A stretch of 40,782 nucleotides of DNA from Aeromonadaceae bacterium (GCA_041595355.1 JBFHKO010000001.1:1-40782), one strand, 5' to 3'; shown: positions 17,490 to 21,487, counted from the first letter of the stretch. A program made the numbers and translations. Notes: generated by a model not told the origin, from the sequence alone.

Positions 17490-18212
17490 CTAGAGGGCCA
17501 GCGGTGGCAATTGGTTGAAGAGTTGTGCCAGCCCTTCGCCCCAGATCTTGCGCAGCGTCTGATAGTGGGGATGGCTCTCGCAGACGCGATACTGGGCATC
17601 CGCGGAGAAGCTATCAACCGGATAGAGCATTACGTCCAGGGGCAGGCCTACCGACAGATTGCTGCGCAGAGTGGAGTCCATGGACAGCAGGGCGCACTGC
17701 ATCGCCTGTTCCAGCGAGGTATCGAACTGCAGAACCCTGTCGATGATGGGCTTGCCGTATTTGCTTTCGCCAATCTGGAAGTAGGGGGTATCTTCCGTGG
17801 CCTCGATGAAGTTGCCCTCCGGATAGATGTGAAACAGCCGGGTTCCCTCGTTGCGGATCTGACCGCCCAGCAGGATGTTGCAGCCAAAACTGATCCCGCT
17901 GCGGTGCGGGTGCCCGCCATCACGCTCTATCACCTCCCGTACCGTGGCACCTACCAGGGTGGCCGCGTCGTACAGCGAGGGCACATTCATCATGTTGAGC
18001 TTGTCGTCGTGGCAGCGCTGGCGCAGCAGGCTGAGCACACTCTGGGTGGTGGCCAGGTTCCCGGCACTTTGCAGCACCAGGATCCGCTCGTTTGCCTGCT
18101 GGAACACATGCAGCTTGCGAAAGGTGGCGATGTGATCGACGCCGGCATTGGTGCGGGAGTCGGAGGCAAACACCAGGCCATCCGCCAGGCGCATGGCAAC
18201 ACAGTAGGTCAT
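17490..18212 (-). CDS. Anbu (ancestral beta-subunit) proteasome-like Ntn-hydrolase peptidase
   Basis: From ATG 18212: MTYCVAMRLADGLVFASDSRTNAGVDHIATFRKLHVF...GGQI...YFQIGESKYGKPIIDR. This is a proteasome beta-like fold signature with Thr immediately after Met and no propeptide. It is the last gene of the ATP-grasp/alpha-E/transglutaminase operon. The track start 18239 is 9 codons upstream. Confidence 0.88.
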   Translation of the reverse strand: MTYCVAMRLADGLVFASDSRTNAGVDHIATFRKLHVFQQANERILVLQSAGNLATTQSVLSLLRQRCHDDKLNMMNVPSLYDAATLVGATVREVIERDGGHPHRSGISFGCNILLGGQIRNEGTRLFHIYPEGNFIEATEDTPYFQIGESKYGKPIIDRVLQFDTSLEQAMQCALLSMDSTLRSNLSVGLPLDVMLYPVDSFSADAQYRVCESHPHYQTLRKIWGEGLAQLFNQLPPLAL

Positions 18213-18248
18213 TGATCCGGGTCTCTCTCTGGGTGGCATGTGCCGCTG

Positions 18249-19067
18249 TTACTGGACGGCGGCGTCAAGTGGGCTCGTTATGGTACCGAGTTGGCTCACG
18301 GCGGCCAGGCTGTGCATGGCTTCCTCACCGCCGCCGAAGCGTACCCCGCGTACCGGGCAGGCATCCAGGTAATCCATGCCCACGGCCAGTTTCAGATGCT
18401 GGTTGGGGCGCATGCTGTTGTTGGTCACATCGAAGGTATGCCAGCGGCCCTCTACCCAGGCCTCGGCCCAGGCATGGGTGGCCACATGGGTCGAGTCCGG
18501 CGTGTACAGATAACCACTGACATAGCGTGCCGGTATGCCGTTGCTGCGACAGCAGGCCAAGAAAACATGGGTATGATCCTGACAGACACCGCGACGGGCG
18601 GCATAGGCCTCGGCGGCACTGTAAGTGGCGTCGGTGCTGCCCGGAGTATAGGGCATGTGGCCCAGTATTGCCGTCATCAGGCGCTGCAGGCCCGCCATGG
18701 GAGCGTGCCGATCCTGCCAGGCAAGGGCCAGGCTGCGCAGTGCGTCATCCGGTTGCGTCAGATAGCTGTGACGCAGGTAGATGAGCGGCGACAAGCCTCC
18801 CGGCTGCGGCTCTTCCATCTCGTCCTGGATCTCCACCTCGCCGCGGGCCTGGATATGAATGATCTCATGGGGTTGGTCCAACGTCAGCACATGCAGGATG
18901 TTGCCGAAACTGTCGGTGGTGCAGGTGGCGCCGCGAGGCAGTTTCAGCTCCCAGGAGAGGATCTGCTGGCGACGGGAGGCCTGGGGCGTCAGACGCAGGT
19001 ACTGGGTACTGTGACGTACCTCTTGGCGGTAATGATAATGGGTGCTGTGCTCTATGGTCAGTTTCAT
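18249..19067 (-). CDS. Transglutaminase-like cysteine protease family protein
   Basis: 272 aa. N-terminal bacterial transglutaminase-N type region (MKLTIEHSTHYHY...), then a Cys-His-Asp core: RRGVCQDHTHVF, THAWAEAWV, FDVTN. The ATG overlaps the alpha-E stop (ATGA). Confidence 0.9.
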   Translation of the reverse strand: MKLTIEHSTHYHYRQEVRHSTQYLRLTPQASRRQQILSWELKLPRGATCTTDSFGNILHVLTLDQPHEIIHIQARGEVEIQDEMEEPQPGGLSPLIYLRHSYLTQPDDALRSLALAWQDRHAPMAGLQRLMTAILGHMPYTPGSTDATYSAAEAYAARRGVCQDHTHVFLACCRSNGIPARYVSGYLYTPDSTHVATHAWAEAWVEGRWHTFDVTNNSMRPNQHLKLAVGMDYLDACPVRGVRFGGGEEAMHSLAAVSQLGTITSPLDAAVQ

Positions 19068-19993: not shown

Positions 19994-21423
19994 AGGGAAT
20001 CCTCCAGTATCCAGGTGTCCTTGGTGCCGCCCCCCTGGGATGAGTTGACCACCAGGGAACCCTGGGTCAGGGCCACGCGGGTCAGACCGCCGGGGACCAG
20101 GCGGATCTCGCGCCCGGAGAGCACGAAGGGGCGCAAATCGATGTGCCGGGGAGCTATTCCCGCCTCGACGAAGGTCGGGCAGGTGGAGAGGGAGAGGGTG
20201 GGCTGGGCCACGTAGTTGTCCGGCCGCGCCTTGATGCGCTCGCGGAAGAGTTCGATCTCCGCCTTGCTGGCACAGGGACCGATCAGCATGCCGTAGCCTC
20301 CGGCACCGTGTACCTCCTTGACCACCAGCTCGGGCAGGTGCGCCAGCACATGGCCGAGATCCTTCGGCTTTCGGCATTGCCAGGTCGGCACATTATTGAG
20401 GAGCGGCTCTTCCGACAGGTAGAAGCGGATCATATCGGGGACGTAGGGATAGATGGACTTGTCGTCAGCCACCCCCGTGCCGATGGCATTGGCCAGCACC
20501 ACACCGCCGGCGCGGTAGACGGAAAGCAGGCCGGGAACGCCTATCATGGAGTCGGGGCGGAAAGCCAGGGGATCGAGGAAGGCATCGTCCAGGCGGCGAT
20601 AGATGACGTCCACCTGTTGCGGCCCCAGGGTGGTGCGCATGAAGACCCGGCCATCCTTGACGAACAGATCCGCGCTCTCCACCAGCTCGACCCCCATCTG
20701 CTGGGCCAGGAAGCTGTGCTCGAAGTAGGCGCTGTTGAAGCGGCCCGGGGTCAGCACCACCACACAGGGATTCTCCTCCCGGCTGCTCTCGCGCAAGGTC
20801 TGCAGCAGCAGGGATGGATAGCGCTCCACCGGGGCGACCTGTTGATGACTGAAGAGCTCCGGGTAGAGGCGCATCATCATCTTGCGATTTTCCAGCATGT
20901 AGGAGACCCCGGAGGGGGTACGCAGATTGTCCTCCAGGACATAGTAATCACCATCGGCGTTGCGGATCAGATCCACCCCGGTGATGTGGGCGTAGATCTT
21001 GCGGTGCAGGGTGACGCCCTGCATGCAGGGCTGGTATTGCTCATTGGTCAGTACCTGCTCCTTGGGGATCACACCGGCCCTGAGAATGTGCTGCTCGTGA
21101 TAGATGTCGTGCAGGAAGCAGTTGAGTGCCGTGACGCGCTGGCGGATGCCGGCATCCAGGCGCTGCCATTCGGCGGCGGGAATGATGCGAGGCAGGTTGT
21201 CGAAGGGAATGAGTCGCTCCGAGCCTTCGGCATCGCCATAGACGTTGAAGGTGATGCCGACCCGGTGAAACATCAGATCGGCTTCTTCCCGCTTTTGCTG
21301 CAGGGTCTTGGCGTCCATCTGGCTCAGCCAGTTCCAGTAGGCCTGGTAATGGGGACGACAGCGACCGTCGGGGAGCAGCATTTCATCATACATATCCGGA
21401 GGCGGGGGGGGGATCGCGGGCAT
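19987..21423 (-). CDS. Circularly permuted type-2 ATP-grasp protein (COG2308-like amidoligase)
   Basis: 478 aa. ...HRVGITFNVYGD...ERLIPFDNLPRII...YYVLEDNLRTPSGVSYMLENR...VVLTPG..NSAYFEHSFLAQQMG.ELVE..DL...VKEVHGAGGYGMLIGP. RBS GAGG lies 6 nt upstream of the ATG. Confidence 0.9.
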   Translation of the reverse strand: MPAIPPPPPDMYDEMLLPDGRCRPHYQAYWNWLSQMDAKTLQQKREEADLMFHRVGITFNVYGDAEGSERLIPFDNLPRIIPAAEWQRLDAGIRQRVTALNCFLHDIYHEQHILRAGVIPKEQVLTNEQYQPCMQGVTLHRKIYAHITGVDLIRNADGDYYVLEDNLRTPSGVSYMLENRKMMMRLYPELFSHQQVAPVERYPSLLLQTLRESSREENPCVVVLTPGRFNSAYFEHSFLAQQMGVELVESADLFVKDGRVFMRTTLGPQQVDVIYRRLDDAFLDPLAFRPDSMIGVPGLLSVYRAGGVVLANAIGTGVADDKSIYPYVPDMIRFYLSEEPLLNNVPTWQCRKPKDLGHVLAHLPELVVKEVHGAGGYGMLIGPCASKAEIELFRERIKARPDNYVAQPTLSLSTCPTFVEAGIAPRHIDLRPFVLSGREIRLVPGGLTRVALTQGSLVVNSSQGGGTKDTWILEDSLC

Positions 21424-21471
21424 GCTAAACCTCGTTGGTTACGTCTGGTTTATGGATTGATGGAATATCTC

Positions 21472-21487
21472 AGCAAGGGTTATGCCA
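21472..21487 (-). promoter_or_regulatory. Sigma-54 (-24/-12) promoter candidate for the Anbu operon
   Basis: The minus strand reads TGGCATAACCCTTGCT, i.e. TGGCA(T)-N5-TTGCT. The GG..GC spacing matches the consensus TGGCAC-N5-TTGCW exactly. The -12 element lies ~50 nt upstream of ATG 21423. Confidence 0.5.

Follow-up and report, generated by a model that had tools for sequence, protein, structure and literature searches.

A canonical Anbu operon in an Aeromonadaceae genome and its predicted sigma-54/NtrC control

Introduction

The Anbu operon was defined in 2008 by Valas & Bourne as the gene set COG2308-COG2307-COG1305-COG3484 (PMC3235984; the definition is also given in PMC6376114), which encodes an ATP-grasp amidoligase, an alpha-E protein, a transglutaminase-like enzyme, and the proteasome-like hydrolase Anbu. 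It is a long-standing known unknown that is very widespread and has two components with solved structures. Here, I describe a copy of this operon on the minus strand of a 40,782-nucleotide stretch of DNA from an Aeromonadaceae bacterium (GCA_041595355.1, JBFHKO010000001.1:1-40782), hereafter called the window, in which all positions are counted from the first nucleotide. An earlier reading of the window, made by a model from the sequence alone (the sequence-only reading), had proposed a complete Anbu operon at 17490-21487. The present analysis agrees on the identity of the operon, and what it adds to this known system is regulation, namely a predicted sigma-54/NtrC promoter.

Structures of Anbu were solved in 2017-2018 (Fuchs 2017, PMC5666114; Piasecka 2018, PMC6376114). 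Iyer et al. (2009, as cited in PMC5666114) read the operon as a peptide-synthesis or tagging system. No Anbu protein cleaved the standard proteasome substrates that were tried, be it fluorogenic peptides (PMC5666114, PMC6376114), or casein and a peptide library (PMC5666114), while Thr1 of Pseudomonas aeruginosa Anbu (PaAnbu) was covalently modified by the peptide-like inhibitors epoxomicin and MG132 (PMC5666114). The ATP-grasp protein of Yersinia bercovieri frees phosphate from ATP, and in pull-downs the four Y. bercovieri proteins did not form stable complexes with one another (PMC6376114). The cassette of ATP-grasp, alpha-E and transglutaminase genes is also widespread without Anbu, the genes of the operon stay in one predicted regulon where they are separated, and Anbu is not induced by heat shock (PMC3235984). 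A 2021 survey stated that Anbu has no known function (PMC8665760), a 2026 preprint on a pneumococcal Ntn protease names Anbu solely as a structural relative, and the literature searched, up to 2026, contains no report of a substrate for the operon. This record, with no peptidase activity in two studies (PMC5666114, PMC6376114), no function in the survey and nothing newer, bears out the earlier statement that substrate and role are unresolved.

Results and discussion

Identity of the operon

Four co-directional open reading frames (ORFs) fill 17490-21423 on the minus strand in the transcriptional order ATP-grasp, alpha-E, transglutaminase-like, and Anbu (Table 1), and together they almost certainly form an intact, canonical Anbu operon. 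The assignment draws on Pfam matches, on matches to the structures of Anbu and of 3N6X, on invariant catalytic residues, on the conservation of the four-gene order in related loci, and on the geometry of the gene overlaps. The families, their order and their recurrence across relatives match the published definition (PMC3235984, PMC6376114), so the operon is bona fide, as the sequence-only reading had it. The novelty implied there has to be given up, as this copy is ordinary and typical of its very large family, known from descriptions of 2008-2009 onwards, with no new component or variant.

The fourth protein returned five PDB matches at E<=1e-3, and all five are Anbu entries: 5NYW (Y. bercovieri, 2.2e-117), 5LOY (2.6e-88), 5LOX (P. 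aeruginosa, 1.1e-86), 5NYJ (4.5e-73), and 5NYF (1.7e-72). In Pfam it matched PF00227 (Proteasome, 6.7e-13). The solved Anbu structures, whose existence the sequence-only reading had mentioned, match far better than any other family, which supports the proposed name. An identity as HslV or 20S proteasome subunit was considered and rejected, since no HslV or 20S chain appeared in the PDB at E<=1e-3, no NCBIfam HslV model matched, and weak archaeal proteasome matches stayed far under the cut-off. Residues T2, D18 and K33 (Thr1, Asp17 and Lys32 of the mature protein) as well as G51 were invariant in 81 sequences; the catalytic Thr1, Asp17 and Lys32(33) and the oxyanion Gly are defined in PMC6376114 and PMC5666114. 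The two outcomes that had been named as speaking against Anbu, placement in HslV or another ordinary family and loss of the Thr/Asp/Lys set, were thus not observed.

The ORF and an alignment of 13 homologues also agree with the earlier description of a 240-residue proteasome beta-like hydrolase that has Thr beside Met and no propeptide. The protein begins MTYCVAM at 18212, and an in-frame ATG at 18239, within the spacer to the preceding gene, would lengthen it by 9 residues. As 13/13 aligned homologues begin with MTYC, 18212 is the better start. Anbu proteins are marked by a C-terminal helix, H5, and by an open split ring of lock-washer shape. In sequence, the protein does have the C-terminal extension, as its alignment to 5NYW continues up to residue 239 of 240. 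The S1 pocket, aligned to 5LOX, consists of T20, F30, S48, L52, and T55. Its counterpart in PaAnbu, the amphiphilic Anbu-1 pocket, has T20, F30, T48, L52, and S55, and the basic pocket of Anbu-2 has I20, A29, R46, R50, and T53 (PMC5666114). With two conservative Ser/Thr swaps and no Arg in the pocket, the protein is of the Anbu-1 type.

The remaining three products were equally well placed by profile searches, in line with the families that had been assigned from the sequence. The 478-residue protein is a circularly permuted type-2 ATP-grasp that matched PF14403 (CP_ATPgrasp_2) at 5.4e-167 over profile positions 1-374 of 374, PF04174 (CP_ATPgrasp_1) at 3e-153, and the PDB entry 3N6X at 6.1e-212. 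3N6X was also the sole match of a PDB profile search with the ATP-grasp alignment; it is a structural-genomics entry with the unverified label 'putative glutathionylspermidine synthase'. The AF2 model of the ATP-grasp protein was of low confidence (pLDDT 40), built from a shallow alignment of 14 sequences at >=80% identity. A GAGG Shine-Dalgarno motif stands 6 nt ahead of its ATG. Residues 5-9 are five prolines in a row (MPAIPPPPPD; 21397-21411, minus strand). Runs of this kind normally call for EF-P if they are to be translated efficiently. The N-terminal tail is poorly conserved in many Enterobacterales and Pseudomonas loci, where the tblastn match to the ATP-grasp protein of the window begins only at residue 11.

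The 309-residue protein matched the alpha-E family PF04168 at 1.9e-93. It has two helices with LERAxNTAR motifs (residues 16-24 and 167-175), and its halves align with each other at 24% identity (E 8e-4), from which I take the protein to be an internal duplication. Its AF2 model is confident and all-helical (pLDDT 90.7). No relative was found in the PDB by sequence, and a Foldseek search of the PDB with the AF2 model gave no meaningful fold match (best E 0.11, TM 0.21). The third protein matched PF08379 (Bact_transglu_N, 2.3e-21) and PF01841 (Transglut_core, 5.6e-23), and 3ISR, a 'putative cysteine protease', in the PDB (2.4e-15). The motifs quoted earlier as an intact Cys/His/Asp core contain C162, H198 and D213, and none of these three residues varies among 66 homologues. 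With this triad, and with Bact_transglu_N ahead of Transglut_core, the protein belongs to the transglutaminase-like cysteine peptidase superfamily.

Conservation and gene junctions

Relatives were scanned in one genome per species, which gave at least 591 loci encoding a relative. The analysis covered the best 80 of these, with 59-80% identity in Anbu, which belong to gamma- and betaproteobacteria of the orders Enterobacterales, Aeromonadales, Pseudomonadales and Burkholderiales. Around 68 of the 80 loci carry ATP-grasp, alpha-E, transglutaminase, and Anbu in that order, with the first three directly upstream of the Anbu match. This is the opposite of the missing co-conservation that had been named as grounds to doubt the operon. 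The other loci comprise two that are cut by contig ends, one that looks degraded, one (L059) that has ATP-grasp, alpha-E and Anbu and lacks the transglutaminase gene, and eight with an orphan Anbu (L047, L048, L057, L058, L064, L071, L072, and L080). Within 10 kb of the orphans there is none of the three partner genes, and their neighbours are unrelated among themselves. In loci with full-length matches, identity to the window was 59-80% for Anbu, 47-76% for alpha-E, 44-70% for the transglutaminase-like protein, and 71-84% for ATP-grasp, the highest of the four, with 228 of its 478 residues invariant. Each of the three components that were searched at the level of protein clusters yielded more than 8000 clusters at 90% identity, which is a lower bound.

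No conserved fifth gene, transporter or substrate gene was found in the flanks of the 68 loci, and the largest flank cluster, shared by 16/68 loci, reflects lineage synteny. Because no fifth gene is conserved there, the operon appears to be a self-contained module that moves between genomic contexts.

The four genes are tightly packed at the positions given in the sequence-only reading, and most of its junctions were recovered exactly. At the first junction, the ORFs of ATP-grasp and alpha-E do overlap, by 7 nt (string ATGCTGA), but the two codons said to overlap, the TGA of ATP-grasp (19989-19987) and the ATG of alpha-E (19993-19991), have no base in common. As described, alpha-E ends and the transglutaminase-like gene begins within one ATGA at 19067-19064 (4-nt overlap), and the distance of about 36 nt between the transglutaminase stop (TAA, 18251-18249) and the Anbu ATG is exactly 36 nt. 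The proposed span of 17490-21487 was right for the coding part, which ends at 21423. Its remainder, 21424-21487, is noncoding and holds the 5' untranslated region and the sigma-54 promoter discussed below, which had gone unmentioned.

Among 65 related loci having all four genes, the 7-nt ATP-grasp/alpha-E overlap occurs in 47 and the 4-nt ATGA overlap of alpha-E and transglutaminase in 40, and the spacer ahead of Anbu has a median of 25 nt. Given these frequencies of the two overlaps, the junction geometry is the family norm and no chance arrangement. The ATP-grasp, alpha-E and transglutaminase-like genes are translationally coupled, and the overlapping stop and start codons of these first three genes suggest that their products are made in stoichiometric amounts. 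An Rfam search of 17000-22000 found no RNA element in the leader or the intergenic regions. A candidate for an intrinsic terminator after Anbu, a GC hairpin of 7 bp at 17458-17476, was unconvincing and was dismissed (no U-tract, z-score -0.93).

Predicted sigma-54/NtrC control

A sigma-54 (RpoN) -24/-12 element lies upstream of the ATP-grasp gene (Table 1). The pattern TGGCAY-N5-TTGCW matched only once on both strands of the 40.8-kb window, at this element, where 0.17 matches were expected. Counting the window, 68 loci had upstream sequence of sufficient length for a survey of relatives against control segments. A GGCAC/T-N5-nTGC motif (GG-N10-GC) was present 30-125 nt upstream of the ATP-grasp start in 68/68 loci and in 5.7% of random 110-nt control segments. 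No sigma-54 element was found upstream of the eight orphan Anbu genes.

Two NtrC-like sites lie further upstream in the window. Against the consensus TGCACC-N5-GGTGCA, at least one site with <=3 mismatches was found upstream of the -24 element in 59/68 loci compared to 12% of controls, and at least one with <=2 mismatches in 36/68 loci compared to 1.7% of controls. The arrangement seen in the window, with a pair of NtrC-like sites in the 180 nt ahead of a -24 element, occurred in only 0.8% of control segments.

From these motifs it is likely that the operon is under sigma-54/NtrC control, with the promoter at 21472-21487 and NtrC acting from one or two upstream sites, and a predicted promoter of this kind is essentially universal, or nearly so, ahead of the operon in gamma- and betaproteobacteria. 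Under such control, the operon would turn on when nitrogen is limiting. The predicted promoter agrees with published induction: in Pseudomonas putida limited for nitrogen, no gene set was more strongly up-regulated than the operon (note added in proof of PMC3235984; cited also in PMC5666114 and PMC6376114). The Anbu-less cassette I35_5080-83 of Burkholderia cenocepacia depends on sigma-54/NtrC (PMC5491218), and predicted sigma-54 regulons of alpha-, beta- and gammaproteobacteria show an enrichment of COG3484 (PMC12316311).

Table 1. Features of the Anbu operon and its upstream region in the window, in the direction of transcription.
Feature	Position	Strand	Details
Distal NtrC-like site	21569-21585	minus	GGCACCACAATGGTACG; ~100 nt upstream of -24; 3 mismatches
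Proximal NtrC-like site	21516-21532	minus	GGCACCAATTATGGGCA; 53 nt from distal site; 3 mismatches; NtrC binding inferred
Sigma-54 (RpoN) -24/-12 element	21472-21487	minus	TGGCATAACCCTTGCT (TGGCAT-AACCC-TTGCT); 49 nt upstream of ATP-grasp ATG
Circularly permuted type-2 ATP-grasp amidoligase (COG2308)	19987-21423	minus	478 aa; Pfam, 3N6X; GAGG Shine-Dalgarno at 21430-21433
Alpha-E protein (COG2307/DUF403)	19064-19993	minus	309 aa, MLSRTASELYWMSRHLERAENTARMLD; PF04168; ORF overlaps ATP-grasp by 7 nt
Transglutaminase-like Cys/His/Asp enzyme with Bact_transglu_N domain (COG1305)	18249-19067	minus	272 aa; PF08379, PF01841; start overlaps alpha-E stop
Spacer between transglutaminase-like gene and Anbu	18213-18248	minus	36 nt; read from sequence; Anbu ATG at 18212
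Anbu (COG3484), type Anbu-1	17490-18212	minus	240 aa, MTYCVAM...; proteasome-beta-like Ntn hydrolase with Thr right after the initiator Met

Comparison with described systems

The Anbu operons of Y. bercovieri, P. aeruginosa and P. putida consist of the same four families in the same order as here. They also share the absence of a propeptide, Thr1/Asp17/Lys32, an Anbu-1-like S1 pocket, the lack of an AAA+ partner (no AAA+ gene adjoins the operon in the window, where a LacI-family regulator and a YgaP-like membrane protein flank it), and a predicted sigma-54 promoter in keeping with the induction published for nitrogen limitation. Nothing substantive differs: the S1 pocket has S48 for T48 and T55 for S55, the ATP-grasp protein has the proline run in its N-terminal tail, and the neighbours are lineage-specific, with the LacI-family regulator on one side and sulfur-related genes on the other.

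More distant systems resemble the operon in part. The Pup-proteasome system of Actinobacteria (PafA ligase, Dop deamidase/depupylase, 20S proteasome, and Mpa) follows a shared logic of an ATP-dependent carboxylate-amine ligase, an amidase or isopeptidase, and a Thr-dependent Ntn hydrolase of the proteasome family. The Pup system is reported to support amino-acid recycling in nutrient-limited mycobacteria. In contrast to it, the Anbu operon lacks a Pup-like ORF, an AAA+ unfoldase and an alpha subunit, its ligase is an ATP-grasp and not a glutamine-synthetase-like enzyme, and its amide hydrolase has a papain/transglutaminase fold. Moreover, Anbu forms an open split ring and not a closed barrel (PMC5666114, PMC8665760). 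The Anbu operon resembles the Pup system only in its possible working logic and is not a member of it. Glutathionylspermidine synthetase/amidase (GspSA) couples an ATP-grasp-type amide synthetase to a papain-like Cys amidase that reverses the reaction, a pairing similar to the one found here. However, in the Anbu operon the two activities reside on separate proteins, with alpha-E and the proteasome-like hydrolase as extras, and membership in GspSA was rejected since none of the four proteins gave a GSP_synth or CHAP match at E<=0.01. HslV of HslVU and Anbu are both proteasome-beta homologues with a Thr1 nucleophile. Unlike HslV, Anbu has no adjacent HslU in the window, is not regulated by heat shock (PMC3235984), and has a C-terminal helix and a split-ring assembly (PMC8665760).

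Possible function

The best explanation of the locus as a whole joins the identity of the operon, its nitrogen control and a ligate-then-hydrolyse mechanism, and I assign it a probability of roughly 0.5. Its functional part, an NtrC-induced module that ligates and then hydrolyses in order to recycle nitrogen from endogenous proteins or peptides, is the most likely single role, and is held tentatively. The ATP-grasp protein, with alpha-E as a non-catalytic partner, would spend ATP to activate a carboxylate as an acyl-phosphate, which would then be ligated to an amine of an endogenous protein or peptide. The transglutaminase-like thiol enzyme may deamidate or cleave the resulting gamma-glutamyl or isopeptide linkage, and the split-ring oligomer of Anbu would hydrolyse the marked or unfolded polypeptide by means of its N-terminal Thr. 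The net outcome would be amino acids or ammonia freed for reuse in nitrogen starvation. Phosphate release by the Y. bercovieri ATP-grasp (PMC6376114) and the reaction of PaAnbu Thr1 with epoxomicin and MG132 (PMC5666114) count in favour of these steps. Neither a transporter nor a substrate gene, nor any other fifth gene, is conserved in the flanks of the 68 loci, so one would expect the substrates to be constituents that every cell has.

Several observations weigh against this explanation. Purified Anbu of several species was inactive on standard proteasome substrates (PMC5666114, PMC6376114), the four Y. bercovieri proteins formed no stable complex in pull-downs (PMC6376114), and neither an unfoldase nor a tag-like small ORF was found in or adjoining the operon. 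The many invariant residues of ATP-grasp (228/478) are no harder to explain in a small-molecule enzyme than in a protein ligase. The existence of Anbu-less cassettes (PMC3235984) and of orphans without a sigma-54 element in 8/80 loci argues that Anbu is not obligatorily coupled to the other genes. Lastly, the two NtrC-like sites of the window have 3 mismatches each and are individually not significant.

The main rival replaces the protein substrate with a small molecule: ATP-grasp would turn a free amine, such as a polyamine or an amino acid, into an amide of the gamma-glutamyl, glutathionyl or a similar type, and the transglutaminase-like amidase and Anbu would hydrolyse that amide or a downstream one, thereby capturing or releasing the nitrogen of low-molecular-weight amines, by analogy with glutathionylspermidine synthetase/amidase and the gamma-glutamylation routes of amine catabolism. 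I regard this as possible but rather unlikely. It would sit well with ATP-grasp being the most conserved of the four proteins, with the label of its ortholog 3N6X, with the inactivity of Anbu on peptides and proteins (PMC5666114, PMC6376114) given that Ntn hydrolases include non-peptide amidases (PMC6376114), and with an NtrC regulon in which many members scavenge small nitrogen compounds, including urea, polyamine and dipeptide systems beside this cassette (PMC5491218). Nevertheless, the GSP_synth and CHAP models of Pfam did not match at E<=0.01, no transporter, oxidase or other catabolic gene is conserved beside the operon, and alpha-E has no predicted role in such a scheme. In addition, a multi-subunit ring-like assembly with a proteasome-like S1 pocket that binds peptide aldehydes and epoxyketones (PMC5666114) would be unusual for an amidase of this sort.

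Peptide synthesis or modification, following Iyer et al. 2009 (per PMC5666114), is quite improbable: here, ATP-grasp would build a peptide independently of the ribosome or extend a protein terminus, while the peptidases Anbu and the transglutaminase-like protein would mature or trim and not degrade. ATP-grasp enzymes are indeed amide-bond ligases, the one from Y. bercovieri turns over ATP (PMC6376114), and the tight linkage of one ligase with two hydrolases is conserved. On the other hand, the nitrogen cost of a peptide product fits poorly with induction by nitrogen starvation (the promoter data above; PMC3235984), the operon and its flanks contain no precursor-peptide ORF, exporter or immunity gene, and Fuchs et al. 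judged this option less likely from the multi-site ring architecture of Anbu (PMC5666114). Even more doubtful is that Anbu works by itself in general quality control, degrading damaged proteins without ATP as an uncapped 20S proteasome does, and that the other three genes are unrelated and merely co-transcribed. The eight orphans without partners within 10 kb and the missing physical interaction with the operon partners (PMC6376114) would fit this, but the four-gene order and its junctions are kept in ~68/80 loci across two proteobacterial classes, separated genes stay in one predicted regulon, and Anbu is not induced by heat shock (PMC3235984).

A bolder reading is a self-contained, NtrC-controlled tag-and-degrade system of Gram-negatives, in which ATP-grasp/alpha-E would mark endogenous proteins covalently and the transglutaminase-like enzyme and the split ring of Anbu would process them with no AAA+ partner. 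The adduct would be an amino acid or a peptide, and alpha-E the substrate-recognition subunit. This is unlikely, somewhat less so than peptide synthesis. If true, it would amount to a functional analogue of pupylation that is made of unrelated folds and dedicated to nitrogen recycling, and it would be a discovery on the whole family, not on this window.

The function of the Anbu operon is of wider interest, as an answer would establish a new pathway of ATP-dependent amide-bond chemistry within the nitrogen-starvation response and make the early evolution of proteasomes clearer. The operon is already at hand in better model organisms (P. aeruginosa, P. putida, Yersinia, Klebsiella, and Aeromonas), and the present copy makes the question no more testable than it is there. 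Since the sigma-54/NtrC promoter is predicted to be near-universal, biochemical and proteomic searches for the substrate belong in cells whose NtrC response is induced by nitrogen limitation. Such conditions did not apply in the experiments published so far, which were made in vitro and by co-expression in E. coli.

Genomic surroundings

The operon is flanked by a gene for a LacI-family regulator (16287-17396) and by one for a 64-residue YgaP-like membrane protein (21663-21857). The LacI gene was considered as a part of the operon and rejected: it is not conserved beside the operon in relatives and has a promoter-like site of its own. Two other assignments were also discarded. None of the four proteins gave a PADLOC match (0 for all four), which speaks against an anti-phage defence system, and an Anbu homologue occurs on only 28 plasmid records, of which the listed top matches are mostly megabase-sized replicons, which speaks against a mobile or plasmid trait. 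No tag-like small ORF was found in or beside the operon; the small ORFs at 21430-21930 are the YgaP-like gene or unconvincing.

A strong GC-rich hairpin at 21629-21662 (minus strand; -32.6 kcal/mol, z -2.4, no U-tract) directly follows the YgaP-like ORF. It marks the upstream limit of the control region of the operon and probably insulates the Anbu promoter region from upstream transcription.

Sulfur-related genes lie on either side of the block of LacI and Anbu genes. They encode a CoA-disulfide reductase (CoADR) with a C-terminal rhodanese domain at 14501-16213 (plus strand), the YgaP-like protein, which is a transmembrane protein encoded on the minus strand, and a split YeeE/YedE-like pair (Sulf_transp / DUF6691) at 21930-22881 (plus strand). 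It looks as if the LacI and Anbu block was inserted into a sulfur-handling cluster. Two Roseateles loci (L044 and L045) likewise have YeeE-like genes, ~3 kb upstream of the operon. At ~21930-21960, a short distance ahead of where the YeeE-like gene probably truly starts (MTIGDF...), a 9-mer is repeated three times in tandem (CCCATGCAG on the minus strand, MGCMGCMGC in the plus-strand frame).

Elsewhere in the window, GC content dips to 0.51 at 34000-35000 compared to ~0.62 in the rest. This region contains an 87-residue ORF (34542-34805) whose N-terminus resembles an XRE-type helix-turn-helix by eye, and which is located between ORFs that, also by eye, are OmpA-like (32949-33980, minus strand) and M48 peptidase-like (34931-35737, plus strand). 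It may be a small foreign insert. Finally, the Rfam family V_AS7 (RF02819, 'Vibrio RNA AS7') matched over its full length at 14523-14691 on the minus strand (114.5 bits against a gathering score of 90). The match is antisense to the ORF for CoA-disulfide reductase/rhodanese, at its 5' end. This could be a real cis-antisense RNA, or the model could be detecting conserved coding sequence.

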